DNA of 64,000 nucleotides from Verrucomicrobiia bacterium (GTDB lineage: Bacteria; Verrucomicrobiota; Verrucomicrobiia; Limisphaerales; UBA1319). The stretch's first letter is position 1. Each line of letters starts with the position of its first letter. Below, piece after piece: positions 3,098-55,379 of this stretch. The notes under the pieces are model-generated. The model was not told the origin of the DNA. It ran no database searches and worked only from the letters and a program-made list of their open reading frames with translations. The DNA is taken from NCBI GenBank assembly GCA_963664225.1, contig OY760937.1, positions 2,560,001 to 2,624,000 on the forward strand, read 5' to 3'. A program made the translations under genes and the position numbers.

Positions 3098-5512
3098 ATG
3101 AATTTGGTTTCAGTGAGAACCACCGGGAAAGGTGGGCGCGCGTCGCGCCTGTCGATCCTTTTGGCGATGGCGGTTGTGTGGCTCGGATGGGTGTGGGTGG
3201 CGGAGGCGCAACATCTTTATGATGTTGGGCAGAAGAATGTTACGTCGGAACAGGTGGCTGCATTGCAGGCCCGCCAGACACGCCAGAGCCGGCTGGAACC
3301 GCTGGGTGTTCCAGCGTTCAACCGGTTGACTGTTGGGTTGACTGCGATTGGTTCGGTTGACGTGTCCATCCTCCTGAGAAACGAGGAGTCCGGGCAAAGC
3401 GTCGTTCTCTCGGGATTCGCGCCCGGGTCTCGGGAGGTGGAGCTGCCGCCGTTGTTGCTGGCGGAACTCAAGGCGGGCGCTTTGGGCGAAGCCACCCGGT
3501 ACCGTTACGCGGTGATGGAAACCGGCAGTAACGGGACGACGAAGGTGAAAAGCCAGGCGGTCTTTGCGATGGCAAGGCAGGCACTCAAGCTGCCGGTTTT
3601 TAGCTACGGTCCCGCCAATGCGGTTAAATCGACGTCCGTCGGCGAGCGCAAGGTGGTGGGAGTGGCGAAGGCGAGGCCTCACGTGCTCATCGCGGATCAC
3701 ACCGATCCGGCCCTGCTGGAGAAAGCGGTCCGCATGGAGGAGGCGGCCGCGTATTACGTCTATACGTATCAACTGCCCGATGGTTCGCTCACCACCTACG
3801 ACGAGCAGCTTCAAACGGTGGGGATTCTGGGGACTGTCACGGGGAGTCTGACGTTCCAGATTTCTGCGACGGGTTCCACCGCCGCGCAGGATGCCGCGGA
3901 TACGTACGTGGCCGGCTTGTGGGGGACGCAGCTTTCCGGGCCGGTGCCGGTGACTGTCTCGATCACTTTTTCAGATTTCGGCGTCGGGAATGAGAAAGTG
4001 ATCGGACAGTCTCTTGAGCCCGCTGTTTACAAAAACGGAGGCATTTATTATCCGTCCGCCCTGCGCAATCAGAAGCTCGGTTATGATGTTAATAAACAGA
4101 TGGCCGACATTCGCCTGGAGTTTAACACGCATTATTCCTTTTACTATGGGACGGACGGCAATTGTCCCTCCGGCCAGATCGATTATCCGTCGGTGCTATT
4201 GCATGAGATGTGCCACGGTCTTGGATTCTACTCTTCCATCAATCCCACGACCGGCCAGTATGGGAGCAGTCCCTCGACGCCCTTGATTTTCGATACCTTC
4301 CTTTACTACAACGGAGCCCGGCTGACGGCGTCCTCCGCGACAACGCGCGCGGCGGCGCTGACCAGTAACGCGCTGTATTATGATGGCCCCAATGCGGTGG
4401 CGGCCAATGGGGGCAGCCGGATTAAAATCTACGCGCCAACGACCTATGCCTCAGGATCGAGCGGGTCGCACTGGGACGAGAGCATCACGTTTCCGACCTT
4501 CATGAAGTATGCGTATCATCAGGTCGTGCACACCTTCAATACCCGCAAGTTGGGGGTGATGAAGGACCTGGGCTGGACTCTGGCGTCCGAGGCCGTCGCG
4601 CCCGCGGCGCCCGCAAACGTCGTCGCGTCCGATGGCCTGACGGATCGGGTGCATGTGACGTGGAATGTTTCCACCAATGCCACTTCGTATAAAATCTATC
4701 GCTACACGACCAACGCCAGCGGGAGCGCCAGCCAGATTGGCACCGCTTCGACCACGAGTTTCGATGACACGAATGCCGTGCCCGGGATCACTTACTATTA
4801 TTGGTTGAAGGCTGCCAACGCGACGGGAGCGAGCGGTTTTAGTTCATCGGATACTGGAACACGCATCAGCCCGGCACCCCCGCTGCCGGTGGCACTCGAC
4901 GCGACGGAACTTACCTGGATGACCGGCGAAAACGTCCAATGGTTCTCGCAGTCGGCCATCACCCACGACGGGGTGGCGGCCGCGCAGAGCGGAGCGATTA
5001 CGAACAGTCAGGAATCCTCGCTTGAGACGACGGTGACTGGTCCGGGCACTGTTGACTTCTGGTGGAAAGTGTCCTGTGAGAATGGAGCCACCAATGATTT
5101 GGACTATCTCCAGTTTTCCGTGGATGGCGTGGAGCAGGCGCGCATCAGCGGGGAGGTGGACTGGCAGGAGGCGGGCTTTACCGTTGGAACCGGCACGCAT
5201 CAGTTGAGCTGGGTTTACCACAAGGATTCGTCAGGCAGCGCCGGTGCGGACGCCGGGTGGGTGGACGAGGTAAGTTATGCGCCGCTCGAGGTGTTTGGTT
5301 TTGAAGTCCAGGGCGGATTGTTGACGGCGACCAACGGCCTGTTGCAGATGACGGTGGTTGGGACAACGGACGCAACGGTGGTTTGGGAATCGTCCAGTAA
5401 CCTGCTGCAGTGGGCGCCCTGGGGGACCAATACGCTGACTAATGGTGTGCTGGACATGCGGATACCGATTGGCACGAACGATCAACAGTTCTTTCGTCTG
5501 CGGATGCCGTGA
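3098..5512 (+). CDS. Secreted zinc metallopeptidase-like protein with FN3-like and beta-sandwich domains and C-terminal FFRLRMP tail
   Basis: Signal peptide; VLLHEMCHGLGF (HExxH) plus SHWD; PAAPANV...YYYWLKA FN3-like segment. Confidence 0.7.
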   Translation: MNLVSVRTTGKGGRASRLSILLAMAVVWLGWVWVAEAQHLYDVGQKNVTSEQVAALQARQTRQSRLEPLGVPAFNRLTVGLTAIGSVDVSILLRNEESGQSVVLSGFAPGSREVELPPLLLAELKAGALGEATRYRYAVMETGSNGTTKVKSQAVFAMARQALKLPVFSYGPANAVKSTSVGERKVVGVAKARPHVLIADHTDPALLEKAVRMEEAAAYYVYTYQLPDGSLTTYDEQLQTVGILGTVTGSLTFQISATGSTAAQDAADTYVAGLWGTQLSGPVPVTVSITFSDFGVGNEKVIGQSLEPAVYKNGGIYYPSALRNQKLGYDVNKQMADIRLEFNTHYSFYYGTDGNCPSGQIDYPSVLLHEMCHGLGFYSSINPTTGQYGSSPSTPLIFDTFLYYNGARLTASSATTRAAALTSNALYYDGPNAVAANGGSRIKIYAPTTYASGSSGSHWDESITFPTFMKYAYHQVVHTFNTRKLGVMKDLGWTLASEAVAPAAPANVVASDGLTDRVHVTWNVSTNATSYKIYRYTTNASGSASQIGTASTTSFDDTNAVPGITYYYWLKAANATGASGFSSSDTGTRISPAPPLPVALDATELTWMTGENVQWFSQSAITHDGVAAAQSGAITNSQESSLETTVTGPGTVDFWWKVSCENGATNDLDYLQFSVDGVEQARISGEVDWQEAGFTVGTGTHQLSWVYHKDSSGSAGADAGWVDEVSYAPLEVFGFEVQGGLLTATNGLLQMTVVGTTDATVVWESSSNLLQWAPWGTNTLTNGVLDMRIPIGTNDQQFFRLRMP

Positions 5513-6403: not shown

Positions 6404-8485
6404 TGAATTGGGTGGTTTGGAAGGTGGACGAACATGCCGCTCCGCTGGAGCTTGAATTTCGTGGTTGTCGGATTTCTATAAACATGGCGCCCCTACGGAG
6501 CTTCTATTTGTGACCCATCGGGTGGAGAGGCACGCGTTCATTGGAATGGGTCTGCGACCCCTGCCGGGATCGTGTTGGCTGGGGTGCGTGTCCGGGGGTG
6601 TCAGTCGCGGACGACCTCGACCCCCGGCTAATCGCTGGCATCCCTGCTGGGATGCTTGGATTTCGTGGTAGTTGGATTTCTATAAACATGGCGCTCCTAC
6701 GGAGCTTCTATTTGCGATCCACCGGGTGGAGTGGCACGCGTTCATTGGAAAGGGTCTGCGATCCCTGCCGGGATCGTGTTGGCTGGGGTGCGTGTCCGGG
6801 GGTGTCAGTCGCGGACGACCTCGACCCCCGGCTAATCGCTGGCATCCCTGCCGGGATGCTTGAATTTCGTGGGTGTTCCGTTTTAAGAACATGCCGCTCC
6901 GCTGGAGCTTGGATTTCGTGGTAGTTGGATTTCTATAAACATGGCGCTCCTATGAAGCTTCTATTTGCGATCCACCGGGTGGAGAGGCACGCGTTCATTG
7001 GAAAGGGTCCGCGACCCCTGCCGGGATCGTGTTCGCTGGGGTGCGTGTCCGGGGGTGTCAGTCGAGGACGACCTCGACCCCCGGCTAATCGCTGGCATCC
7101 CTGCCGGGATGCTTGAATTTCGTGGTTGTTGGATTTCTATAAACATGGCGCTCCTACGGAGCTTCTATTTGCCATCCACCGGGTGGAAAGGCACGCGTTC
7201 ATTGGAAAGGGTCTGCGATCCCTGCCGGGATTGTATTGGTTGGGGTGCGTGTCCGGGGGTGTCAGTCGCGGACGACCTCGACCCCCGGCTAATCGCTGGC
7301 ATCCCTGCCGGGATGCTCGAATTTCGTTGTTGTCGGATTTCTATAAACATGGCGCTCCTACGGAGCTTCTATTTGCGATCCACCGGGTGGAGAGGCACGC
7401 GTTCATTGGAATGGGTCTGCAATCCCTGCCGGGATCGTGTTGGCTGGGGTGCGTGTCCGGGGGTGTCAGTCGCGGACGACCTCGACCCCCGGCTAATCGC
7501 TGGCATCCCTGCCGGGATGCTTGAATTTCGTGGTTGTTGCATTTCTATAAACATGGCGCTCCTATGGAGCTTCTATTTGCGATCCACCGGGTGGAGAGGC
7601 ACGGGTTACAAAGGGACGCCATGTGGGGTTGGTTGAGGGAAGAATGGAGGATGGATAGTCGAAAGTGGTCGCGGAATGAATTGGGTGGTTTGGAAGGTGG
7701 ATAAACATGCCGCTCCGCTGGAGCTTGAATTTCGTTGTTGTTTGATTTCTATAAACATGTCGCTCCTACGGAGCTTCAATTTGAGACCCATCGGGTGGAG
7801 AGGCACGCGTTCATTGGAATGGGTCTGCAATCCCTGCCGGGATCGTGTTGGCTGGGGTGCGTGTCCGGGGGTGTCAGTCGCGGACGACCTCGACCCCCGG
7901 CTAATCGCTGGCATCCCTGCCGGGATGCTTGAATTTCGTGGTTGTTGCATTTCTATAAACATGGCGCTCCTACGGAGCTTCTATTTGCGATCCACCGGGT
8001 GGAGAGGCACGCGTTCATTGGAATGGGTCTGCGATCCCTGCCGGGATCGTGTTGGCTGGGGTGCGTGTCCGGGGGTGTCAGTCGCGGACGACCTCGACCC
8101 CCGGCTAATCGCTGGCATCCCTGCCGGGATGCTTGAATTTCGTTGTTGTCGGATTTCTATAAACATGGCGCTCCTACGGAGCTTCTATTTGCGATCTACC
8201 GGGTGGAGAGGCACGCGTTCATTGGAAAGGGTCTGCGATCCCTGCCGGGATTGTATTGGTTGGGGTGCGTGTCCGGGGGTGTCAGTCGCGGACGACCTCG
8301 ACCCCCGGCTAATCGCTGGCATCCCTGCCGGGATGCTTGAATTTCGTTGTTGTCGGATTTCTATAAACATGGCGCTTCTACGGAGCTTCTATTTGCGATC
8401 CACCGGGTGGAGAGGCACGCGTTCATTGGAATGGGTCCGCGACCCCTGCCGGGATCGTGTTGGCTGAGGTGCGTGTCCGGGGGTG
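6404..8485 (+). repeat. Tandem array of 204-bp composite REP-like units (8 full, 2 partial) in two blocks
   Basis: Unit marker tttctataaacat at 6473, 6677, 6930, 7134, 7338, 7542, 7746, 7950, 8154, 8358. Hairpins GCTCC-TAC-GGAGC, CCGGGGGT...ACCCCCGG and CATCCC-TGCC-GGGATG in each full unit. Confidence 0.95.
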
Positions 8486-8756
8486 TATGGAGGGAATCGT
8501 TTGAATGGGAAATAGAATGATCGTGGGCGTTACGAATTGGCGCAGGCAATCGGATTATCGAGAGGGTTGCAAATATTCAAGCTCCCCTTGATTCGAATGC
8601 TGCGCCGTCTGAAGACGGGACTCCATACAAAACCCTCGGACGCCGGGCGCCAGTAGGTATGGAGTGGAATATGTGTTCCGATTCAGGGCTGGTTGAGTCT
8701 CCAATGGCGTTTTATTGTATTTCCGCGGACCGGAGGATGCAGTTTTGCGCCCTGTG

Positions 8757-8923
8757 AGTTTGAGACGGTTGGCGGATTGGAAATCCGCGATACGGCAGGA
8801 TGTCTGCGCTACGGGTGGTGAAGCGCAATTTCGCTCCAGTCTGTGGAGTCCGCTGCCGACTTACATTCCATGGAGCGTCTGATAGTTCGCTCGATTGCAG
8901 GTTGGAAACCTGCGAAACGGCAG
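8757..8923 (+). repeat. REP-like units of the ...TCTGCGCTAC family; the last is split by IS110 copy 1 and resumes at 10121
   Basis: Same 129-bp unit as at 17833-18158 and 19356-19502. Confidence 0.85.
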
Positions 8924-8931
8924 CAACGGTG

Positions 8932-9870
8932 TCATGGAGCAACACAGAATCTGGGATCTTTTAGGGCATGATTCATCAATACGATGAGTTTCCGCATCAC
9001 TGCTGTCAGCGCCACTTTGGGCTTCTTGCCCGCCGCCCGCAGCCTCTTATAAAAGGCCTTGAGGATGGAATTGCAGCGCACCGCTGCCACGGAGGCCATG
9101 TAGAGGGCGCGGCGCACCCCGGTCCGGCCGCCACCAATGTGACGCTGGCCTTCCCAAGGGCCGCTCTGGCGCACCCACGGGGCCAGCCCCGCCAGGGCTG
9201 CCGCCTGGCCCCGGTTGAGGGTTCCCAGTTCGGGCATCTGCGCCACTACCGTCACGGCCGTCAGCATCCCCACGCCGGGAATTTCCGCCAGGCGGGTGAC
9301 TTGTTTTTGCTCGACGGCGTGGCGGGCCAGGGCGGCGGTTAATTCGGCCAGCACTGCGGCCAAACGGCTTTCCAGATGCCGTATCAGCTTGGCGTGTTCG
9401 GTGCGGACGAAGGGTGAGTCGTGGTGTTCGGCCTGATTTTTGGCGATGGTCAGGAGATCTTTGAGTTGTTCGCGCCAGGTCACCAGGGCGGTGAGCTCAG
9501 TGTGGGCTGGCGTCGGGGCGGTGGTGGCAGCGGGCTCCAGGGCCTTGCCGAAGGCGCTCAGGCTGGCAGCATCGATCGGATCGCTCTTGGCCCGCTGGCC
9601 GGTGGCGCGGGCGAAGGCACGGGTCTGGGCCGGGTTGACCACGCTGACGGGTAAACCGGCCGTGTGAAGTGCCGCCACGACGGCACGCTCATAGCCGCCA
9701 GTGGCTTCGAGGATCACGTGGGCACCGGGCACAGCACCCAGACATTGGACCAGTTGTGTGTGCCCCGCCGCATCGTTGGTCACGTCCAGGAGCCGTCCGG
9801 GAAGGTGAAGTTGGAGAGTGGCCTTGGCGACGTCCAGACCGACATGGACAGGGGCGGATTTTTCAGTCAT
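8932..9870 (-). CDS. IS110 DEDD recombinase/transposase (312 aa from MTEKS)
   Basis: GLDVAK, LEATGGY and KSDPID (DEDD); IPGVG, RQSG (catalytic Ser region), GGR..VR.ALYM and A.MRKL. Confidence 0.96.
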   Translation of the reverse strand: MTEKSAPVHVGLDVAKATLQLHLPGRLLDVTNDAAGHTQLVQCLGAVPGAHVILEATGGYERAVVAALHTAGLPVSVVNPAQTRAFARATGQRAKSDPIDAASLSAFGKALEPAATTAPTPAHTELTALVTWREQLKDLLTIAKNQAEHHDSPFVRTEHAKLIRHLESRLAAVLAELTAALARHAVEQKQVTRLAEIPGVGMLTAVTVVAQMPELGTLNRGQAAALAGLAPWVRQSGPWEGQRHIGGGRTGVRRALYMASVAAVRCNSILKAFYKRLRAAGKKPKVALTAVMRKLIVLMNHALKDPRFCVAP

Positions 9871-10105
9871 AATATTAAAGTTGTTCGGACTCATTCTTGC
9901 AAATACGAGCTGGCGTTGTAACACGCCGCTCTGGTAACGGTTCGAGTTTCGGACAAAGGCGAGCGCGATTCATGCTGCCGTACGGTCTGGCTTTCACCAG
10001 ACCAAGATTGGAACGAACACGCGTCCGCCGTCCCTTCCCCGCCTGCAGGCGGGGAAGGGACACCACTTCTTTCTTGTTCAACGCGAACCAACAAACAAGT
10101 GGCAA
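9871..10105 (-). ncRNA. Predicted IS110 bridge RNA, copy 1 (ends approximate)
   Basis: 5' hairpin (perfect 32-bp palindrome 10030-10061). Target loop: TTCCAATCT (10013-10005), stem GGTCTGG/CCAGACC, ACGGCAG (9981-9975). Donor loop: ACCGTTAC (9941-9934), stem, TGCAAG (9901-9896). Confidence 0.85.
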
Positions 10106-10191
10106 ATTCAAACATACAAGACTGGAAGTCTGCGCTACGGGTGGCGCGGGGGTGGGGACACCCCGGCCTTCAGGGTCGTGGGTTTATTCGA

Positions 10192-12597
10192 CTAGTGCAT
10201 CAGGGCCTGGCGGACTTTGTCGGCCAGGACTTCCCTGGTGAAAGGTTTTTGGAGGAAGTGAATGCCTTCCTCCAGAATGCCGTTGTGGGCGATGATGTCG
10301 GCGGTGTAGCCGGACATGAAGAGGCGCTTGAGGCCCGGGTGGAGCGAGAGCAGGCATTTGGCGAGGTCCTGTCCGTTCATTTCGGGCATGATCACGTCGG
10401 TGATCAAGAGGTGGATTTCTCCGGCGTGCCCGCTGGCCAGGCGGACGGCTTCGCCCGGGGTGCCGGCGGTGAGGACGGTGTAGCCCAGGCTTTCGAGGAC
10501 GCGCCTGCCGATAATCAAGATGGACGGTTCGTCCTCGACCAGGAGGATGGTCTCGAGACCGCGCACCGTCGGCACGGCTGGGCCTTCCCTGTGAATCGGC
10601 GGGGCTTCTTCGGCATGGCGCGGCACATGCAATTTGAAGGTTGTGCCGCAGCCCGGTTTGCTTTCGACATTAATGAATGCGTGATTTTGTTTTACGATGC
10701 CGTAAACGGTGGCCAACCCGAGACCCGTGCCTTTGCCAACGTCCTTGGTGGTGAAAAACGGCTCAAAGAGGTGCGTCAGCACTTCTTTATCCATGCCGCA
10801 ACCGTCATCGCTGAATGCGAGTGTCACATAATCGCCAGGGACAATGTCGGTGTGGGTTTGGCAATAGGCCTGGTCGATGGTGACGTTTTCTGTCTTGAGG
10901 GTGATTTTGCCCACGCCGCCGATGGCGTCCCGGGCGTTGAGGCAGAGGTTGGCGAGCACCTGGCCAACCTGGCCGGGATCGGCCTTGATCGGCCAGAGGC
11001 CCGTGGCGGGGTGCCACTCCAGGTCGATGTCCCCGCCGATGATCCCCCGCAGCATCTTGAGCATGGATTCCAGAGTCTCGTTGAGGTCCAGGATCTTGGG
11101 CGAGGCGATTTGTTTGCGGGCGAAGGCCAGAAGCTGGCGGGTGAGGTCCGCCGAGCGCCGGGCGCATTTTTCGATTTCCGCGAGGTTCTCACGATGCGGG
11201 CTGTCCGGCGGGAGGTCCTCGATGACCATGGCCGCGTTTCCCTGGATGACGGTGAGCATGCTGTTAAAATCGTGGGCCACACCGCCTGCCAGACGTCCGA
11301 CGGATTCCATTTTCTGCGCCTGGGTCAACTTCTCCTGGAGTTTCTCACGCTCTTCCTGCGAGTGTTTGATGTCTTGAATGTCCGTGCAGGTGCCAAACCA
11401 TTTAAGGATGCCTCCCTTTTCATCCAAAACAGGGACGCCGCGAATCAGCCACCAGCGATAAACGCCGTCCCGCCGGCGTAATCTGCATTCGAGCGAGTAG
11501 GTGGCATTGTTTGTGACTGCGTTCTGCCAGGCATCCCAGGCGCGTTGCTGGTCGTCGGGGTGGAAAGGTATGTTCCAGCCATGACCGTGGCTTTCTTCGG
11601 GTGTGAGTCCTGTGTATTCGAACCACTGTCGGTTGAAATAAATGTTCCAGCCATCGGCCCGGGTCGCCCAGACAATCTGGGGCATGGCCTCGGCCAGCAA
11701 ATGAAACTCCTTTTCGCTGGAAGCCAGCGCCTCCCCGGCCTGGACGCGTTCCGTGATGTCCTGGATGGTGCCGATCATGGCAACGATTTTTCCATCCGCG
11801 TCGAAACTGGTCTCTCCCAATCCATTGACCCACCGGACTTCGCCGTCGGACTTGCGGAGGATGCGGTATTCTTTATTGAATGGCCTGCGTTTCGCGATGA
11901 CTTCCTCTTTCAAGTAGCGGTCCATCATCTCCCGGTCATCCGGATGGGTGATGTCCAGCCAGCCGGGAACGCTCCTGACGTAGTTCTTGTCGATGCCGAA
12001 TATCTGGTCGAGGACTTCGGACGATTCCCAAAAACCCGCGACAAAGTCGGTTTTATAGGAACCAATAAATGCGACACGCTGCGATTCCTTGAAGAAGAAC
12101 TCGCTGTCCCGCAGGGCCTTCTCGGCCTGACTGCGCGAGGCCAGCTCCTCTTCCAGCTTCCGGGTGCGTTCGGCCACGAGCGCGGCGAGTTGGTCTTTCT
12201 CGAGGCGCTGCAGGCGATTTGCGGCCTTGATCCTGGCCATGACCCGAAGCTGGGCGAGCAATTCCACCTCATCCAGGGGCTTGGGGAGAAAGCCTTCGGC
12301 ACCGGCGTCCAAGGCCTGGATGCGGCTATCACGGTCGGTTATCAGGCCGGTGAGAAACACCACGGGAATGGACTGGAGGCGGTCGTCCTCCTTGAGTTCG
12401 CGGCAAACAGAAAACCCGTCCATGCCTGGCATCAGGATATCGAGCAGGACGACGTCTGGGTCCTCGGCGCGGGCCAGGGCGACTCCCTCGGGGCCACTCA
12501 AAGCGGTCAGGATTTCGGTCCCGGGCAACGCACCCCCCACGGCAGCCTTCAACATGATCAGGTCATTCGGGCTGTCGTCAATGGCGAGTATCTTCAT
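10192..12597 (-). CDS. Cytoplasmic hybrid sensor kinase (REC-PAS-PAS-HisKA-HATPase-REC)
   Basis: N-terminal REC (DILMPGMDG); two PAS_3-like domains; H-box AGGVAHDFNS; FEPFFTTK..GKGTGLGL; C-terminal REC. Confidence 0.93.
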   Translation of the reverse strand: MKILAIDDSPNDLIMLKAAVGGALPGTEILTALSGPEGVALARAEDPDVVLLDILMPGMDGFSVCRELKEDDRLQSIPVVFLTGLITDRDSRIQALDAGAEGFLPKPLDEVELLAQLRVMARIKAANRLQRLEKDQLAALVAERTRKLEEELASRSQAEKALRDSEFFFKESQRVAFIGSYKTDFVAGFWESSEVLDQIFGIDKNYVRSVPGWLDITHPDDREMMDRYLKEEVIAKRRPFNKEYRILRKSDGEVRWVNGLGETSFDADGKIVAMIGTIQDITERVQAGEALASSEKEFHLLAEAMPQIVWATRADGWNIYFNRQWFEYTGLTPEESHGHGWNIPFHPDDQQRAWDAWQNAVTNNATYSLECRLRRRDGVYRWWLIRGVPVLDEKGGILKWFGTCTDIQDIKHSQEEREKLQEKLTQAQKMESVGRLAGGVAHDFNSMLTVIQGNAAMVIEDLPPDSPHRENLAEIEKCARRSADLTRQLLAFARKQIASPKILDLNETLESMLKMLRGIIGGDIDLEWHPATGLWPIKADPGQVGQVLANLCLNARDAIGGVGKITLKTENVTIDQAYCQTHTDIVPGDYVTLAFSDDGCGMDKEVLTHLFEPFFTTKDVGKGTGLGLATVYGIVKQNHAFINVESKPGCGTTFKLHVPRHAEEAPPIHREGPAVPTVRGLETILLVEDEPSILIIGRRVLESLGYTVLTAGTPGEAVRLASGHAGEIHLLITDVIMPEMNGQDLAKCLLSLHPGLKRLFMSGYTADIIAHNGILEEGIHFLQKPFTREVLADKVRQALMH

Positions 12598-17750: not shown

Positions 17751-18158
17751 TGGAAGTTAGCCGGGATGTATCTGACGATTGACTTGAAAGGTCTTAATGG
17801 CGCGTGGCGCAGGTTCTCAACATTCCGGATCGCCGACTCACAGTCAATGGGGCGCCTGATAGTTCGCTCGATTGCAGGTTGGAAACCTGCGAAACGGCAG
17901 ACTGGAAGTCTGCGCTACGGGTTGTGAAGCGCAATTTCGCTCCAGTCTGTGGAGTCCGCTGCCGACTCACAGTCAATGGGGCGCCTGATAGTTCGCTCGA
18001 TTGCAGGTTGGAAACCTGCGAAACGGCAGACTGGAAGTCTGCGCTACGGGTGGTGAAGCGCAATTTCGCTCCAGTCTGTGGAGTTCGCTGCCGACTTACA
18101 TTCCATGGAGCGTCTGATATTTCGCTCGATTGCAGGTTGGAAACCTGCGAAACGGCAG
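17751..18158 (+). repeat. Leader plus tandem 129-bp REP-like units (empty IS110 targets at 17899 and 18028; occupied at 18157)
   Basis: gcaggttggaaacctgcgaaacggcagactggaagtctgcgctac recurs at a 129-bp period. Confidence 0.92.
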
Positions 18159-18166
18159 CAACGGTG

Positions 18167-19105
18167 TCATGGAGCAACACAGAATCTGGGATCTTTTAGG
18201 GCATGATTCATCAATACGATGAGTTTCCGCATCACTGCTGTCAGCGCCACTTTGGGCTTCTTGCCCGCCGCCCGCAGCCTCTTATAAAAGGCCTTGAGGA
18301 TGGAATTGCAGCGCACCGCTGCCACGGAGGCCATGTAGAGGGCGCGGCGCACCCCGGTCCGGCCGCCACCAATGTGACGCTGGCCTTCCCAAGGGCCGCT
18401 CTGGCGCACCCACGGGGCCAGCCCCGCCAGGGCTGCCGCCTGGCCCCGGTTGAGGGTTCCCAGTTCGGGCATCTGCGCCACTACCGTCACGGCCGTCAGC
18501 ATCCCCACGCCGGGAATTTCCGCCAGGCGGGTGACTTGTTTTTGCTCGACGGCGTGGCGGGCCAGGGCGGCGGTTAATTCGGCCAGCACTGCGGCCAAAC
18601 GGCTTTCCAGATGCCGTATCAGCTTGGCGTGTTCGGTGCGGACGAAGGGTGAGTCGTGGTGTTCGGCCTGATTTTTGGCGATGGTCAGGAGATCTTTGAG
18701 TTGTTCGCGCCAGGTCACCAGGGCGGTGAGCTCAGTGTGGGCTGGCGTCGGGGCGGTGGTGGCAGCGGGCTCCAGGGCCTTGCCGAAGGCGCTCAGGCTG
18801 GCAGCATCGATCGGATCGCTCTTGGCCCGCTGGCCGGTGGCGCGGGCGAAGGCACGGGTCTGGGCCGGGTTGACCACGCTGACGGGTAAACCGGCCGTGT
18901 GAAGTGCCGCCACGACGGCACGCTCATAGCCGCCAGTGGCTTCGAGGATCACGTGGGCACCGGGCACAGCACCCAGACATTGGACCAGTTGTGTGTGCCC
19001 CGCCGCATCGTTGGTCACGTCCAGGAGCCGTCCGGGAAGGTGAAGTTGGAGAGTGGCCTTGGCGACGTCCAGACCGACATGGACAGGGGCGGATTTTTCA
19101 GTCAT
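18167..19105 (-). CDS. IS110 DEDD recombinase/transposase, copy 2
   Basis: Protein identical to copy 1. Confidence 0.96.
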   Translation of the reverse strand: MTEKSAPVHVGLDVAKATLQLHLPGRLLDVTNDAAGHTQLVQCLGAVPGAHVILEATGGYERAVVAALHTAGLPVSVVNPAQTRAFARATGQRAKSDPIDAASLSAFGKALEPAATTAPTPAHTELTALVTWREQLKDLLTIAKNQAEHHDSPFVRTEHAKLIRHLESRLAAVLAELTAALARHAVEQKQVTRLAEIPGVGMLTAVTVVAQMPELGTLNRGQAAALAGLAPWVRQSGPWEGQRHIGGGRTGVRRALYMASVAAVRCNSILKAFYKRLRAAGKKPKVALTAVMRKLIVLMNHALKDPRFCVAP

Positions 19106-19340
19106 AATATTAAAGTTGTTCGGACTCATTCTTGCAAATACGAGCTGGCGTTGTAACACGCCGCTCTGGTAACGGTTCGAGTTTCGGACAAAGGCGAGCG
19201 CGATTCATGCTGCCGTACGGTCTGGCTTTCACCAGACCAAGATTGGAACGAACACGCGTCCGCCGTCCCTTCCCCGCCTGCAGGCGGGGAAGGGACACCA
19301 CTTCTTTCTTGTTCAACGCGAACCAACAAACAAGTGGCAA
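19106..19340 (-). ncRNA. Predicted IS110 bridge RNA, copy 2 (ends approximate)
   Basis: Sequence reads identical to 9871-10105. Confidence 0.85.
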
Positions 19341-19355
19341 ATTCAAACATACAAG

Positions 19356-19870
19356 ACTGGAAGTCTGCGCTACGGGTGGTGAAGCGCAATTTCGTTCCAG
19401 TCTGTGGAGTCCGCTGCCGACTCACAGTCAATGGGGCGTTTGATAGTTCGCTCGATTGCAGGTTGGAAACCTGCGAAACGGCAGACTGGAAGTCTGCGCT
19501 ACATGGAAAAGGTTTTGCGATTCCTGCCGGGACTGTAAGTTTGAGACGGTTCGCAGATTGGCAATCTGCGATACAGCAGCTTAGGCAAGCTGCGCTACGA
19601 ACTGCGGTGACGGCGCGCAGAGGACTGCACGCCCTACCACGAGCGAAACGGCGGTCGCGAACCGGAGAAGTTTGTTCGGTGCATTGAAAATTTGAAAAGG
19701 CCGGAAGTTAGCGGGGCTGTTTCTGACGATTGACTTGAAAGGTCTTAATGGCGCGTGGCGCAGGTTCTCAACATTCCGGACTGCCGACTCACAGTCAATG
19801 GGGCGCCTGATAGTTCGCTCGATTGCAGGTTGGAAACCTGCGAGACGGCGGACTGGAAGTCTGCGCTACG
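19356..19870 (+). repeat. Continuation of REP cluster (empty target at 19483; variant at about 19850 with AG core changed to GG; copy of the 17751 leader at 19703)
   Basis: Direct sequence comparison with 17751-18158. Confidence 0.88.
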
Positions 19871-24232: not shown

Positions 24233-24337
24233 GGAGCGTCGGCCCGATTTGTTTGGATACGTGACAAAACTCAGGAGTGTGGAAAACGGCTATGGCGGTG
24301 CAGTGATTTTAAATAGGTTTTGCGGCAACGGCAGAAC

Positions 24338-25016
24338 CAGCGGGCGGAGCTTGGGGCGGATTTGGAACCGTTGGATTTAAAAACGTCGTAAGCCAGTCAG
24401 GAGACCGGCGCTCCGGGGACACCAGCGGGCGGAGCTTGGGACGGATTTGGAACCGTTGGATTTAAAAACGTCGTAAGCCGGTCAGGAGACCGGCGCTCCG
24501 GGGACAGCAGCGGGCGGAGCTTGGGACGGATTTGGAACCGTTGGATTTAAAAACGTCGTAAGCCAGTCAGGAGACCGGCGCTCAGGGACAACAGCGGGCG
24601 GAGCTTGGGGCGGATTTGGAACCGTTGGATTTAAAAACGTCGTAAGCCGGTCAGGAGACCGGCGCTCAAGGACAACAGCGGGCGGAGCTTGGGGCGGATT
24701 TGGAACCGTTGGATTTAAAAACGTCGTAAGCCAGTCAGGAGACCGGCGCTCAGGGACAACAGCGGGCGGAGCTTGGGGCGGATTTGGAACCGTTGGATTT
24801 AAAAACGTCGTAAGCCAGTCAGGAGACCGGCGCTCCGGGGACAGCAGCGGGCGGAGCTTGGGGCGGATTTGGAACCGTTGGATTTAAAAACGTCGTAAGC
24901 CAGTCAGGAGACCGGCGCTCCGGGGACAGCAGCGGGCGGAGCTTGGGGCGGATTTGGAACCGTTGGATTTAAAAACGTCGTAAGCCGGTCAGGAGACCGG
25001 CGCTCCGGGGACAGCA
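24338..25016 (+). repeat. Eight tandem 84/85-bp units, each with REP-like GCC(A/G)GTCAGGAGACCGGCGCTC
   Basis: Unit starts at 24338, 24423, 24508, 24592, 24676, 24760, 24845, 24930. Confidence 0.96.
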
Positions 25017-25108
25017 AATGTATTGCCAGCAAACAGGCGTTGTGTCATTTCAATGGCACACATTACCGAACCAATAAACACGCTGACGCGACGCGACCTG
25101 GAATGATT

Positions 25109-32417: not shown

Positions 32418-32588
32418 TTCTAACGGGCCATTGAAGACTGGGGTGGGGAAAGTGGGGTCTGGAGGTGTTTCATCCAGACCTCACCTATCCTCAAATCCCG
32501 TGAATGGGGGGGGCGCCGCACGCCATTCAAACATTCGCAAACATTCGCAGACATTCGCCATGAGAGCCGCGTCATGGGATTGGGTGCA

Positions 32589-32751
32589 TGACAAAACTCA
32601 GGAGTGTGGAAAACAGCCATGGCGGTGCGCTGATTTTAAGTCGGCATTGAGGCAACGACAGAACCAGTGTGCGGGGTTCGAGGGGCATTTGAAAACGATG
32701 GATTAAAGAGCGCTTTAAGCCGGTCTGGAGACCGGCGCTCCGAAGACAGCA
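32589..32751 (+). repeat. Single diverged copy of the ~165-bp element whose 3' half is amplified at 24338-25016
   Basis: tgacaaaactcaggagtgtggaaaac...gccggtctggagaccggcgctcc matches 24262-24420. Confidence 0.85.
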
Positions 32752-32913
32752 GTCACCCTATTTACTCCACTGGCATTTTTTGGCCTTCTTCTGCTGGCAA
32801 TAGAATTTTGTCCTGGGCGTCATGGCATTCCAAGTCCAATTCGGGCGTTGCGTCGGGACCTCATTTCGGCTACTCGTGTGTTCGTTAAGACAATGATAAA
32901 CGCAGATCGAGAT

Positions 32914-46337: not shown

Positions 46338-46413
<76 letters not shown>

Positions 46414-46639: not shown

Positions 46640-48022
46640 ATGAGATTCATCAAAACATTTTCTGCAATTGTGGCGGCATTTGCGGGTTTTTTCCTTTGCG
46701 CGTCCGCACAAGCCCAATTCGATTACACGACCAATAACGGCACCATCACCATCACCAAATACACTGGCCAAGGCGGTGCAGTGACCATTCCTGACACAAT
46801 CAGTGGTCTGCCGGTCGCCACCATTGGAACCAATGCGTTTTATCGCTGTGATAGCCTGACCAACATTACGATAGGCACCAGTGTCACCAGCATTGAAAAC
46901 TCGGCTTTCTCTAGCTGCCACAGTTTGATAAACGTCACGATTCCAAATAGCCTTTGCAGCATTGGGATTTATGCGTTCTTTTGGTGCAGCAGCCTGACCA
47001 ATATGACTATCCCAAACGGCGTTACTAACATCGGAAGCGGTGCGTTTAGTCAATGTTCCAACCTGTCCAAAATCACGATCCCCAACAGCGTTATCAGCAT
47101 CGGGAACAATGCTTTTTCCTTTTGTTCCAGCCTGGCCAGCATCACGATCCCCAATAGTGTCGTCAGCATTGGAAGCTGTGCGTTTGCGCCCTGTCCCAAT
47201 TTGGAAGCAATCGCCGTGAATGAAAACAACTCCACCTATAGCAGCCTGGCTGGTGTATTGTTCGACAAGAGTCAGGCCACGCTGATTCAATATCCGGGGA
47301 GCCAATCCAGAATCTATACGGTCCCCAACAGTGTTACCCGCATCGGGGATTCCGCGTTCTCTGACTGCTATAGCCTGGCCAGCGTCACAATCCCCAACAG
47401 CGTTACTAACATCGGGGACGGAACGTTCCATAGGTGTTGCAGTCTGACCAATGTCACGCTTCCCAACAATCTCACCAATATCGGTGATGGAATGTTCTTT
47501 GCCTGTATTAGGCTGAATAGTGTCACAATCCCCAACAGCGTCACCAGAATCGGTGGTTCTGCGTTCTACTACTGTGAAAATTTAACCAACGTTACGATCC
47601 CTAATACCGTCACCACTTTAGGTGATGCTGCGTTCCTTGACTGTATCAGCCTGACTCACATCTATTTTCAAGGTGACGCCCCCAGCCTTGAAAGACATTT
47701 GTGCTTCAATGGCTCCAATGCGACCATCTATTATCTACCGGGCACCACCGGCTGGGGCACTACCTACGGCAGTCGTCCGACTGCATTGTGGACACCGCTG
47801 GTACAAACCACCGATGCCACCTTTGGCGTGAGGAGCAATCAATTCGGTTTTAACATCAACTGGGCCAGTGGACAAACCGTCGTGGTGGAAGCCTGCACAA
47901 ATCCGGTCAATCCCACATGGTCTGCCCTGCAAACCAAAACCCTTACCGATGACTCCTTCTATTTCAGCGATCCCGAGTGGACGAATTATCCCACACGCAT
48001 CTACCGTCTGCGAGTTCCGTAG
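46640..48022 (+). CDS. BspA-type (LRR_5) leucine-rich repeat surface protein
   Basis: Signal peptide; 23-aa repeats (TIPNSVTxIGxxAFxxCxxL); conserved C-terminal domain. Confidence 0.92.
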   Translation: MRFIKTFSAIVAAFAGFFLCASAQAQFDYTTNNGTITITKYTGQGGAVTIPDTISGLPVATIGTNAFYRCDSLTNITIGTSVTSIENSAFSSCHSLINVTIPNSLCSIGIYAFFWCSSLTNMTIPNGVTNIGSGAFSQCSNLSKITIPNSVISIGNNAFSFCSSLASITIPNSVVSIGSCAFAPCPNLEAIAVNENNSTYSSLAGVLFDKSQATLIQYPGSQSRIYTVPNSVTRIGDSAFSDCYSLASVTIPNSVTNIGDGTFHRCCSLTNVTLPNNLTNIGDGMFFACIRLNSVTIPNSVTRIGGSAFYYCENLTNVTIPNTVTTLGDAAFLDCISLTHIYFQGDAPSLERHLCFNGSNATIYYLPGTTGWGTTYGSRPTALWTPLVQTTDATFGVRSNQFGFNINWASGQTVVVEACTNPVNPTWSALQTKTLTDDSFYFSDPEWTNYPTRIYRLRVP

Positions 48023-48041
48023 GGATGGAGACGTTTTCACC

Positions 48042-48081
48042 GGTTTCCGGTTCAAGTCCGGACCGAGGCACCACTTTTTTC
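48042..48081 (+). repeat. 40-bp direct repeat of the tRNA-Lys 3' end (attR-like; partner 46382-46421)
   Basis: ggtttccggttcaagtccggaccgaggcaccacttttttc is present at both sites. Confidence 0.95.
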
Positions 48082-48231
48082 TCCGCATTCTCCCCTTCGC
48101 ATTCGAACGTTTTTCAGAATTACCAACGGTGGATCCATTGCCACCGGATGCGGCGGATTATTTCTCCCGGGTGGTGGGGCGCGTGATTATTCTTGTCAGG
48201 TTTCTCCATTGGCGGCTGTTTATTGATTGAG

Positions 48232-49650
48232 ATGCAGACGAATTCAGACGCCCAGTTGCTCCGTGAATACACCGAAAATGGTGGTGAGGCGGCTTTCACC
48301 GAAATCGTCTCCCGGCACATGGATCTGGTGTATTCGGCGGCGCTGAGGCAGGTGGCATCGCCTGATCTTGCCCGCGATGTGGCCCAAAGCGTTTTTATCG
48401 ATCTTGCCCGCAAAGCACCGTCTCTGGTGCGTAAGCAAGACTCTGGCACCTGGTTGATTGGATGGCTTTACCGCAGCACGCGGTTTGCGGCACTGACGTT
48501 GGTGCGCGGCGAGCGTCGCCGCGAGGCGCGCGAAATTCAAGCCATGCAAGACTCCAATCCTGATTCTGAAGTATCACCTGACTGGGACCACGTTCGGCCC
48601 AATTTGGACGAAGCGATGGCGAGCCTGAGCGCTGCGGATCGGGATGCGTTGCTGATGCGGTTCTTCAAAAACCAGGATTATCGAGCGGTCGGCGCGGCCA
48701 TCGGGGTCAGCGAAAACACGGCGCAGCAGCGTGTATTGCGCGCGCTCGAGAAGCTCCGCAAGAGCCTGGCGCGCCAGGGAATCACAACCTCCACCGCCGC
48801 GCTTTCCATGGCCCTTTCCGCCAATGCCGTTCAGGCCGCGCCTGTCGGACTGGCCGCGACCATTTCCGCACTGGCCGTGATGGCCGGTCCCGCCCTATCC
48901 ACCACAACCGCAATCGCCGCCGTAAAAACCATTGCCATGACCACTCTACAAAAGACGTTGATCACCGCGACCCTCGCCGCCGCTGTGGGAACAGGAATCT
49001 ATGAAGCCCGCCAGGCTTCCAGTTTGCGATGCCGTGTCCAGACCCTCGAACAAGAGCAAGCGCCACTGATGGCGCAAATTCAGAAGTTACAGCAGGAACG
49101 CAACGACGCCACGAACCAGTTGGCGCTGATGTCCGAGGCCACGTCCCGCGCCAATAGCAATACGATCGAACTGCTCCGGCTTCGCAGCGCCGTGGGAACG
49201 CTGCGCCAGCGCACCAACGAGCTGGGCAAACTGTTGCAGGACACGGTGGCGGCGAATCAAACATCGCAGGGGTCACTTGGACAGACCAACTTCCCGAGGG
49301 ATTCCTGGACTTTCGCCGGGTTTGCCACGCCCGAGGATGCGATTCAATCCTTTATGTGGGCCAAGAGCCGCGGCGAGGTGAAAACGGCTTTAAGCTCGGC
49401 CACACCGGAGCTGAAGCAGGAATTAATGGTTCGCTATTTCAAAGACAAAACGGACGAGGAGATCTCGGCGGCGTTGATTGATTCGGCAAAGGATCAAACG
49501 GGAATTCAAGTTCTAAAGAAGATGGCAGCGGCGGAAGATCAAGTCGTTTATCAAATCCACATTGATGGAACGCCCGATGCTTCCTACTCGCTGTTGACGA
49601 TGAAGAAAATTGATGGCGAATGGAAAGTCTCCGGCAACGAGGATCGCTAA
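48232..49650 (+). CDS. ECF sigma-70 factor with long C-terminal extension
   Basis: Region 2 (AFTEIV.RH..LVYSAALR, DVAQSVF..LARKA, GWLYR) and region 4; then an Ala-rich hydrophobic stretch, a coiled coil and a globular tail. Confidence 0.9.
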   Translation: MQTNSDAQLLREYTENGGEAAFTEIVSRHMDLVYSAALRQVASPDLARDVAQSVFIDLARKAPSLVRKQDSGTWLIGWLYRSTRFAALTLVRGERRREAREIQAMQDSNPDSEVSPDWDHVRPNLDEAMASLSAADRDALLMRFFKNQDYRAVGAAIGVSENTAQQRVLRALEKLRKSLARQGITTSTAALSMALSANAVQAAPVGLAATISALAVMAGPALSTTTAIAAVKTIAMTTLQKTLITATLAAAVGTGIYEARQASSLRCRVQTLEQEQAPLMAQIQKLQQERNDATNQLALMSEATSRANSNTIELLRLRSAVGTLRQRTNELGKLLQDTVAANQTSQGSLGQTNFPRDSWTFAGFATPEDAIQSFMWAKSRGEVKTALSSATPELKQELMVRYFKDKTDEEISAALIDSAKDQTGIQVLKKMAAAEDQVVYQIHIDGTPDASYSLLTMKKIDGEWKVSGNEDR

Positions 49651-49844
49651 AATGGAAGTGAGACTGCAACGGCAGTAGAATCTCTAACGGGCTTCGCTAT
49701 TTTCCACCGCCTGAATATTGTCCTGCGCCTGCTGCATCTGGAGATTCAAAAGCGCGATGGTCAGAGGCGGGCAAAGCCACTACATTTGGGCATTGCCTGT
49801 CACCTGTGAGAATGATTTTCAGATTGTGACCGTGCGCTTATAAA

Positions 49845-50915
49845 ATGAAAACAGACTTTTTCCGCCTTCTCTTTGGAACGATGCAGGCGTGGGTTGCGAT
49901 GGCGGGGGTGGCTCTGCCGCTTGGGGCCGCTGAATTCAAGCCGGGCGAGGTCTGGCTGGACACCGAGGGCAAGCCGATCCAGGCGCATGGCGGCGGGATA
50001 CTGGTTCAGGAGGGCGCCTACTATTGGTATGGCGAGGATAAAACGCTCGGGAACATGAACAAGACGGGCATCTCGTGCTACTCCTCCACGAATCTTTACG
50101 ACTGGAAGCATGTGGGAGTCGTATTGCCCAAGGAAGCCATGCCGCCGCAATTTCAGGATCGCGGAGTCGTGGAGCGGCCCAAAGTCCTCTACAATGCGCG
50201 GACCCGAAAATACGTGATGTGGATGCATCTGGACGATCGGGGTTATCACGCGGCCAGCGCGGGCATTGCCACAGCGGATTCCCCTGCCGGACCTTTTGTG
50301 TTCCTGCATAAAATGCGGCCCATTCAATTCGACGTCGGTTATAAGGAGACCGATCCGGATCACCAAAAAGAGCTTGGCGGGACGTATCGCGACATGAACC
50401 TGTTCCTGGACAGCGACGGCAAGGCGTATGCGTTTTATGCGTCGGAGGGAAACGCCACGCTGTATGTGGTGCGATTAAACGAGGACTTCACCGGACCGCA
50501 AACTCCGGCGGAACAAGGCAAGACCTGGGCCCGGGTACGGGTGGGCGAGTTTCAAGAAGCTCCCGCGCCATTCAAGCATGGGAACCGCTACTATTTGATC
50601 ACATCGCATTGCACCGGTTGGGCTCCAAATCCCGCCAGCTACGCGGTGGCCGACAACATACTTGGACCCTGGGTGGTCAAGGGCAATCCGTGCGTGGGCG
50701 CTGAAGCGGAAACCACGTTTCGTTCTCAAAGCACCTTTGTCCTGCCGGTGGCCGGTAAACCCGGATGCTTTATTTTCATGGCGGATCGGTGGTTGAGCAA
50801 AACCCTGCAAGACTCCCGATATATCTGGCTGCCGCTCATTCTCAAGCCGGACGGTTCGTTTACATTGGAGTGGCGGGATCAATGGGATTTGTCGGTGCTT
50901 GACAGCACAAAGTAG
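49845..50915 (+). CDS. Glycoside hydrolase family 43 (subfamily 24-like)
   Basis: IQAHGGGI, YYWYGE, ERPKV.YN, RDMNLF, EAPA.FK and SQSTF. Confidence 0.88.
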   Translation: MKTDFFRLLFGTMQAWVAMAGVALPLGAAEFKPGEVWLDTEGKPIQAHGGGILVQEGAYYWYGEDKTLGNMNKTGISCYSSTNLYDWKHVGVVLPKEAMPPQFQDRGVVERPKVLYNARTRKYVMWMHLDDRGYHAASAGIATADSPAGPFVFLHKMRPIQFDVGYKETDPDHQKELGGTYRDMNLFLDSDGKAYAFYASEGNATLYVVRLNEDFTGPQTPAEQGKTWARVRVGEFQEAPAPFKHGNRYYLITSHCTGWAPNPASYAVADNILGPWVVKGNPCVGAEAETTFRSQSTFVLPVAGKPGCFIFMADRWLSKTLQDSRYIWLPLILKPDGSFTLEWRDQWDLSVLDSTK

Positions 50916-51041
50916 CATGGCCTCGATATCAGAATCCATGGGTGGATTCCGGTTCTGGAGCCAACGCGTCAATGTTGGATTCAAGTGTGCTGGCTGATTA
51001 TTTGTTTGACATAACGGACCGTTTTCGTTACACACGTAATC

Positions 51042-53297: not shown

Positions 53298-53532
53298 GGC
53301 ACCAAGGCACGGACGTGCTCCAGCAGAAATTGAAAATGGAATGGCGCGGCAAATGGGGCCGGCGCGTCTTAGAGGGAACAAGGTTTTAAGCAAAAGCTTT
53401 TTTGGTGGATTTTATAATTGGATGCAGGTTCTGGAGCCTTCCACAGTTGTGAAACAGAGACCAATTTCGAGGTTCGCCGGATGTCTGTGGATTTCTTGAT
53501 ATATCAGCCCGCGCATGGCATCCTGAATCAAG

Positions 53533-55227: not shown

Positions 55228-55379
55228 GATGGAGGGAAACTACCCACGTATTGAAAGGGAGAAGCGACAAAGCCGCAATGCGCCCCGTGACAATCTTTTA
55301 GCGCAATTCGATTTGACAGCGGGATACGCTTCTGAAACTCTGCAGTTTCGCTGGTCTGTTGTTCTTGTCGGAATAATAA

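Follow-up and report, generated by a model that had tools for sequence, protein, structure and literature searches.

The present analysis concerns an insertion sequence (IS) of the IS110 group, and the guide RNA predicted from its left end, in a 64,000-nucleotide stretch of the genome of a Verrucomicrobiia bacterium (contig OY760937.1, positions 2,560,001 to 2,624,000), which is hereafter called the window and to which all coordinates refer unless a locus is named. The 1.2-kb element lies on the minus strand in two copies, A and B (Table 1), and in copy A 1197 bp separate the two copies of the CT core, at 10120-10119 and 8923-8922. A base-by-base comparison of 1281 positions around both copies revealed 14 differences, all of them in the flanks, while the copies themselves are 100% identical over 1199 nt; because the copies are identical and their flanks differ, we suppose that the element has moved recently. 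The left junction reads GCAGACTTCCAGT-CT-TGTATGTTTG (...TTCCAGT-CT-TGTATG) and the right one TGACACCGTTG-CT-GCCGTTTCGCAGG (...ACCGTTG-CT-GCCGT). Removal of the element and of one CT from the flanks of either copy gives TTCCAGTCTGCCGT (TTCCAGT-CT-GCCGT), a 14-nt sequence that is also present, exact and empty, at three other places in the window, whereas joining of the element ends gives the donor ACCGTTG-CT-TGTAT. Hence the target and the donor that an earlier note on this DNA had derived from empty sites and joined ends were correct, as judged by the junctions and by the three empty sites. The left non-coding end takes up 249 nt, against 8 nt plus the core at the right end; no terminal inverted repeat was seen by eye at the element ends, of which no formal scan was made. 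Insertion is site-specific, at a short core, the empty site is restored exactly, and the left end is far longer than the right one; in every sequence-level character that can be tested, the element belongs to the IS110 group.

Table 1. Coordinates of the insertion sequence, its gene, the parts of its predicted RNA and its target sites in the window
Feature	Position	Strand	Basis or remarks
IS110-group insertion sequence, copy A	8922..10120	minus	ends set against empty sites
Same element, copy B	18157..19355	minus	same 14-nt site in another repeat unit
Recombinase (transposase) gene, 312 aa	8932..9870	minus	Pfam and PDB matches; only long open reading frame in the element
Non-coding left end, predicted bridge RNA	9871..10118	minus	fold, alignment, covariance
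5' hairpin 1	10063..10105	minus	helices 1-3; 81-93% of cells paired, 7 of 15 pairs changed on both sides
5' hairpin 2, 14-bp G+C-rich stem	10030..10061	minus	helix 4; 94% paired, 8 of 14 pairs compensatory
Target-binding stem-loop (predicted)	9958..10029	minus	helices 5-7; base stem, internal loop, top stem 10003-9984
Left target guide (LTG), TTCCAATCT	10005..10013	minus	5' side of first loop; same sense as TTCCAGTCT
Right target guide (RTG), ACGGCAG	9975..9981	minus	3' side of first loop; exact reverse complement of CT-GCCGT, 7/7
Candidate handshake guide CA, target loop	9973..9974	minus	complements donor positions 7 and 6 (G, T), 2/2; does not complement the cognate target
Donor-binding stem-loop (predicted)	9882..9955	minus	helices 8-10; base stems UGU/ACA and ACUC/GAGU, top stem 9931-9907
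Left donor guide (LDG), AACCGTTACC	9933..9942	minus	5' side of second loop; compared with donor left plus core, CACCGTTGCT (CACCGTTG-CT)
Right donor guide (RDG), ATTTGCAAG	9896..9904	minus	3' side of second loop; compared with CTTGTAT
Candidate handshake guide AA, donor loop	9894..9895	minus	first A complements target position 7 (T), 1/2
-35-like hexamer TTGCTC	8937..8942	minus	end of recombinase gene; right-end half of putative circle-junction promoter
-10-like hexamer TATGTT	10111..10116	minus	left end; 17 nt downstream of TTGCTC only once circularised
Empty target site, TTCCAGTCTGCCGT	17894..17907	minus	exact; core CT in 3' arm of a 7-bp repeat hairpin
Empty target site	18023..18036	minus	exact
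Empty target site	19478..19491	minus	exact

Both copies occupy TTCCAGT-CT-GCCGT within a palindromic repeat, which starts with CCGTAGCGCAGAC and occurs seven times in the window at no more than two mismatches, against 0.02 expected. As single-stranded DNA, an empty site would form two 7-bp hairpins, GCAGACT-TCC-AGTCTGC and GCAGGTT-TCC-AACCTGC (z = -3.9), and the core CT falls within the 3' arm of the first of them. The earlier note had spoken of a host REP (repetitive extragenic palindromic) repeat. The palindromic, REP-like part of this description holds, and 'REP-like palindromic repeat' is a fair term; however, the repeat is partly arranged as tandem units of ~129 bp, a layout unlike that of classical enterobacterial REP sequences. 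A search of the window with the 14-mer gave six matches in all against 0.43 expected, including two with two mismatches elsewhere, which are probably due to chance. A one-mismatch site at 19845-19858, with the core changed from CT to CC (TTCCAGTCCGCCGT), carries no insertion, in keeping with what a requirement for core pairing would predict. Variants of the repeat family without the 14-nt target are found at 8798-8814 and 19560-19600 (e.g. GCAGACATCCTGCCGT), which indicates that the IS reads one repeat sub-type only. The nearest genome-derived orthologue (L001; 70% identity), from a Binatia metagenome-assembled genome (MAG), sits in a palindromic repeat of the same family (L001:420-440 and 1650-1700; GTAGCGCAGATTTGCAAT-CT-GCCGTATCGCAG), so that both the repeat family and the IS are found in more than one phylum-level lineage.

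The recombinase, which comprises a DEDD RuvC-like and a Tnp domain, matches the Pfam families PF01548 (DEDD_Tnp_IS110, 9.1e-18) and PF02371 (8.3e-18), both beyond the curated cut-offs, and, among PDB entries, the IS621 recombinase (8wt6; E 7.5e-34, 120 bits over ~295 aligned residues) and ISCro4 (9t56; E 9.8e-33); the query of the PDB search started at residue 4 of the protein, which did not affect the results. In the alignment with 8wt6, the motifs GLD, LEATG, SDPIDA and QSG stand opposite the catalytic motifs of IS621, whose catalytic residues are D11, E60, D102, D105 and S241; the residues D13, E55, D97, D100 and S236 of our protein are all present and its reading frame is intact. Translation from an upstream ATG at 9894 would yield a 320-aa form, which is the version in the protein database, but most orthologues do not conserve this ATG. 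Of 8000 scored candidates, 4964 proved to be protein relatives at E <=1e-3, the best non-self match being 84% identical. No named IS was present among the plasmid tblastn matches listed (12 of 2501 records), of which the best is 45.5% identical; all of those listed are either annotated as 'IS110 family transposase' only or unannotated.

Upstream of the gene, the left end is predicted to give rise to a bridge RNA, probably of ~226 nt, extending from about 10104 to about 9878. Folded as RNA, the left end is much more stable than its shuffled versions (z = -5.96 against 200 shuffles). For comparison, 21 relatives were aligned as protein and a scan of genome contigs yielded 36 loci (designated by L numbers), while the RNA alignment comprised nine sequences, namely the left ends of the window element and of eight close orthologues. 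From this alignment RNAalifold derived 69 pairs, of which 28 are compensatory. In the structure that we propose, 91.1% of the cells are paired and 30 of the 63 pairs have changed on both sides, a value that none of the 500 shuffles reached and that dropped to 8-11 when the pairing partners were slid by 1-3 columns. Pairing is weakest in helix 8, the 3-bp outermost base of the donor-binding stem-loop (63% paired). The stems covary with many changes from G-U to G-C, as suits RNA better than duplex DNA. We also built a covariance model from the two stem-loops, with 152 positions and 34 pairs, which gave 30 matches. Of the 36 loci, 26 have a full-length match upstream of the recombinase gene, as have both window copies (at 19113-19264 in copy B, with a score equal to that of copy A); of the other two matches, one is on the opposite strand in L024, and one, weak and partial, is in L026.

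The motifs listed in the earlier note are all found on the minus strand and in the order that it gave: the LTG and the RTG (Table 1), ACCGTTAC within 9941-9934, TGCAAG at 9901-9896, and the two top stems, GGTCTGG/CCAGACC at 10003-9997 / 9990-9984 in the target loop and GAGC-GGCGT/ACGCC-GCTC at 9931-9923 / 9916-9907 in the donor loop. As to the hairpin that it placed in front of them, a 5' hairpin is indeed present, but there are two, both supported by compensatory changes. A natural deletion of the left end was observed in L002 (1359-1520), where both 5' hairpins are gone and the guides are well matched (LTG 9/9, RTG 8/9); this suggests either that the 5' hairpins are dispensable or that this copy is decaying.

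The four guide-like segments, lying in internal loops whose flanking stems covary, match target and donor in order at 27 of 31 positions. The LTG agrees with TTCCAGT-CT at eight of nine positions, its single mismatch being A-C against the bottom strand. The LDG agrees with CACCGTTG-CT at seven of ten; the donor-left match claimed earlier is right as regards the run ACCGTT, which is exact, but the LDG leaves part of the core unpaired, as it does in most members of the clade. Pairing of the RDG with CTTGTAT of the donor top strand is discontiguous, with two bulged U and one G-T wobble, and matches the pattern described for IS621, in which nine RNA bases of the RDG face seven donor bases (PMC11208160). 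On the whole the second loop suits the joined element ends, though its LDG pairs less completely with the core than IS621 would lead one to expect. In RNAalifold the first nine bases of the left end were paired with the RDG segment (columns 1-9 with 250-258), so that the complementarity of RDG and donor was detected independently, with compensatory changes in L004 and L001. The bridge RNA of IS621 is described as consisting of LTG, stem and RTG followed by LDG, stem and RDG (PMC11208160), and the LTG-RTG-LDG-RDG layout with a CT core, assigned to the IS621 type by the earlier note, agrees with that description.

The element ends are readable in most of the orthologous loci, the right end always being ..C(C/G/A)G(T/C)(T/A)(G/T)-CT and the left one CT-(T/A)G(T/C)A(T/C), and this made it possible to compare guides with insertion sites. 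The LTG was scored by the best match, without gaps, that the left target plus core (9 nt) finds on the 5' strand of the loop, and the RTG by the best one that the reverse complement of core plus right target finds on its 3' strand. This score replaced a comparison of guides at fixed columns, which inserted columns in L023, L025 and L032 put out of register, and it gives the controls equal freedom; the duplicate copy in the window was removed from the counts. For the LTG, cognate pairs matched on average at 6.86 of 9 positions (n=22) and non-cognate ones at 4.44 (430 pairs), and for the RTG at 7.29 of 9 (n=21) and 4.41 (388 pairs), respectively; in neither case did any of 20000 permutations reach the cognate value. 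The guides and the sites (guide/site) are ACGGCAG/CTGCCGT in the window and L001, TTGGGGAG/CTCCCCAA in L004, CGAGGAG/CTCCTCG in L006, TTCCGAAG/CTTCGGAA in L008, GCGGCTCAG/CTGAGCCGC in L011, GCACCTCAG/CTGAGGTGC in L013 and L016, and ACACAGAG/CTCTGTGT in L023. Thus, the guide changes are plainly compensatory across distinct target classes, in orthologues of several phyla. Two of the three refuting tests named in the earlier note, on the position of the guides in internal loops and on their covariation with insertion sites in homologues, were run, and each came out in favor of its reading.

Some of the loci deserve separate mention. In L024 the left flank (1280-1300) consists of the right end of a different IS110-type element (ACAGTAT-CT), and the opposite-strand match of the covariance model is a second, diverged bridge-RNA-like sequence located downstream (3487-3639, minus strand); the impression is of IS110 insertions that are nested or adjoin one another. 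The contigs of L010 and L029, labelled as a Klebsiella pneumoniae MAG, carry an IS of the verrucomicrobial type (59-71% identity) and are probably mis-binned; in L029 the copy is flanked on the right by CCCC-rich DNA resembling the CCCTCTCCCC-type sites of verrucomicrobial loci.

In IS621, the two bases that follow each right guide are reported to pair, after strand exchange, with the opposite DNA at positions 6-7, whereas their pairing with the cognate DNA has to be avoided (PMC11208158). The candidate handshake bases of the window element are CA in the target loop and AA in the donor loop (Table 1), and at position 7 neither pairs with the cognate DNA. Across the loci, handshake pairing at position 7 was found in 22 of 23 target loops and in 12 of 22 donor loops. 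According to the description of IS621 in PMC11208160, its circle junction also rebuilds a sigma-70-like promoter. Circularisation of the window element would bring together TTGCTC-17-TATGTT; in the register TTGnnn-17-TAtgtt, TTG occupies the -35 position in 12 of 21 elements, while the flanks of integrated elements match it at 0-3 of 6 positions. Since the junction sequence attains 7/12 and does not come first when the computed junction is scanned without bias, we treat this promoter, as well as the RNA 5' end near 10104, as putative and modelled on IS621. In the integrated copy we found no consensus promoter that would serve the RNA, the only site being on the opposite (plus) strand: a promoter-like TGGACA-17-CATAAT (10/12) at 9845-9873, which leads out of the start of the recombinase gene. 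It is antisense to the bridge-RNA region and could give rise to an antisense transcript.

On these grounds the following course of events can be proposed. By analogy with IS621, the element would excise as a circle; the joining of its right and left ends would place the -35-like hexamer beside the -10-like one, and the ~226-nt bridge RNA could then be transcribed. Tetramers of the recombinase would hold this RNA, its first loop pairing with both target strands in the 3' arm of the REP-like hairpin and its second loop with the circle junction. Ser236 would cut beside the CT cores, the strands would be exchanged with the assistance of the handshake bases CA and AA, and the element would be inserted scarlessly.

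Taken together, the data make it very probable that the window harbors, in two identical copies, an intact and probably recently active IS110-group element with an IS621-type bridge RNA. Of the testable attributes of such an RNA, most are recognizable at the level of sequence, namely a covarying structure, an LTG matching at 8/9 and an RTG at 7/7, and covariation of guides with sites. The earlier claim of an intact RNA-guided recombinase with a target and donor specificity of its own gains support from the Pfam and PDB matches, the catalytic residues and the covariation. Several points weigh against this conclusion, and they are as follows. All five sites in the window differ from the LTG by the same single mismatch; the mismatches of the LDG fall on donor position 7 and on the core T, and in IS621 core pairing is strongly preferred; and the putative junction promoter is weak. 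The covariance model found no RNA match in ten of the 36 loci, eight of which have no upstream sequence or contain a C-terminal fragment only, while L020 and L030 do have upstream DNA. Rfam 15, searched with the interval 8700-10400 at E<=1, returned two unrelated weak matches only (E 0.23 and 0.95), and with the whole window at gathering thresholds a single tRNA; as Rfam may contain no bridge-RNA family, neither result is readable as evidence against a bridge RNA. Some loci fit poorly (LTG 6/9 in L005, 5/9 for both target guides in L024, RTG 5/9 in L032). Besides, the orthologues are mutually related, so the permutation counts overstate independence and do not amount to a strict probability, and all the mechanistic steps set out above rest on analogy.

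Several of these points would suit an element that used a bridge RNA in the past and has since become a fixed, inactive relic: an LTG that mismatches every site in the window, an LDG mismatched at position 7 and at the core T, and a junction promoter of 7/12. However, the identity of the two copies between differing flanks points to recent movement, and the reading frame is intact together with all five catalytic residues. As for the guides, natural IS110 guides are reported to have often 0-2 mismatches, and donor position 7 is reported to tolerate a mismatch in IS621 (both PMC11208160). We therefore regard the relic as improbable. Even less probable, in our opinion, is that the left end serves as a 5' untranslated leader or as protein-binding DNA, so that the recombinase alone would read the target and the similarity to the target would reflect DNA-level sites. 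This is suggested by the fact that the 3' base stem of the donor loop adjoins the start of the recombinase gene, where several orthologues have GGAG ~10 nt before the ATG; this arrangement makes a role in translation control possible, but alongside the guide role. The G-U to G-C covariation fits RNA, the guides track the target across several target classes at fixed positions of the loops, and IS621 recombination in vitro is stated to require the RNA (PMC11208160).

Finally, one could suppose that the guide-like matches arose by chance in a structured, G+C-rich spacer, considering that the single motifs are short (6-9 nt). Yet none of the 5000 dinucleotide shuffles of the left end reached the ordered total of 27 (the maximum was 25), and the pattern consisting of TTCCAATCT, 15-45 nt and ACGGCAG occurs in the 64 kb only twice, once in each IS copy, against 0.01 expected from shuffles. 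Together with the covariation across orthologues, these controls led us to reject chance similarity, to which we attach hardly any credence. The reading that we prefer remains an intact, probably active IS621-type bridge-RNA element.

Among the closest known systems is IS621 of E. coli (PMC11208160, PMC11208158, 8wt6). It shares with the window element the two protein domains, the D/E/D/D/S set of residues, the CT core and the left end CT-TGTAT, the location of the RNA in a long left end combined with a very short right end, and a palindromic-repeat target; the order of a 5' stem-loop, a target loop (LTG in the same sense, RTG as reverse complement) and a donor loop (LDG, RDG) is likewise the same, as are the predicted discontiguous RDG pairing and the candidate handshake-type bases after each right guide. 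The differences are as follows: the IS621 protein is only distantly related to our recombinase and comes from Escherichia coli, whereas the host of the window element appears, from the labels of its nearest relatives, to be of Verrucomicrobiota type; the predicted RNA is ~226 nt long versus 177 nt in IS621; the RTG has 7 nt, and up to 9 nt in relatives, versus the 4-7 nt given in the published description; and the LDG in most of the clade, unlike that of IS621, does not pair with the whole core. The clade also has two covarying 5' hairpins versus one in the published consensus, a distinction drawn from the text of the paper (PMC11208160) and not from an RNA alignment. ISCro4 (IS622) of Citrobacter rodentium is a bridge recombinase of the same family (9t56), reported to be 88% identical to IS621 and to work in human cells (bioRxiv 10.1101/2025.05.14.653916); given that identity, it should be equally distant from the window protein. 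The seekRNA elements of the IS1111 and IS110 groups, as presented in PMC11187229, similarly have a DEDD transposase, and an RNA from their non-coding region picks the target. In the IS1111 group, according to PMC11208160, the RNA lies in the right end and subterminal inverted repeats are present, while in the window element the predicted RNA is in the 249-nt left end. ISPpu9 and ISPpu10 of Pseudomonas putida, described as IS110 elements inserting into multicopy REP sequences (PMC12288879, bioRxiv 10.64898/2026.03.19.712850), resemble our element in this respect and differ in hosts and repeats, as judged by their descriptions.

Bridge RNAs as a class have been known since 2024, and the window element is a new example of it, well-supported but ordinary. 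Thousands of orthologous bridge RNAs had already been predicted computationally (Durrant 2024, PMC11208160), the same source giving 5,511 analysed target-RNA pairs and predictions for 85.7% of the IS110-group elements of ISfinder, and a later preprint describes a screen of 72 orthologues. Our literature search found no paper combining IS110, Verrucomicrobia and bridge RNA. What recommends the locus is that a single 64-kb window shows the target, the donor, the guides and the empty sites together with another copy of identical sequence, and does so in a lineage remote from the enterobacterial elements that have been studied to date; in addition, the orthologue set, with its several target classes and matching guide changes, supports the bridge-RNA model independently and from outside E. 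coli. It seems doubtful that the mainly verrucomicrobial clade represents a distinct subtype of bridge systems, for which the candidate marks would be the extra covarying 5' stem-loop, RTGs of 7-9 nt, an LDG that does not read the whole core, and a donor-loop base stem abutting the start of the recombinase gene. If these marks did alter specificity or couple RNA folding to translation, the clade could provide genome engineering with a recombinase that is orthogonal and possibly of higher specificity, and it would be a test case, made by nature, of the extent to which the mechanism requires core pairing. In practical terms, recombinase engineering gains one candidate orthologue and a small clade; no new question is opened.

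The window contains several other repeats. Next to IS copy A, at 6431-8615, a 204-bp unit is repeated in tandem some ten times, with 61-94% identity to the copy taken as reference, and short open reading frames in this array recur with the unit. The last ~32 nt of a tRNA-Lys (CTT) gene (46338-46413), with a few bases 3' to it, are repeated exactly as 40 nt at 48042-48081, 1660 bp downstream; this pair looks like the attachment sites of a small integrated element or its remnant. Dozens of repeats with a period of 69 bp, in several stretches within 46800-57350, are probably genes for proteins built of 23-residue repeats. One more repeat family, with a periodicity of 85 bp, is represented at 24253-25094 and 32580-32752 by two clusters and one distant copy.

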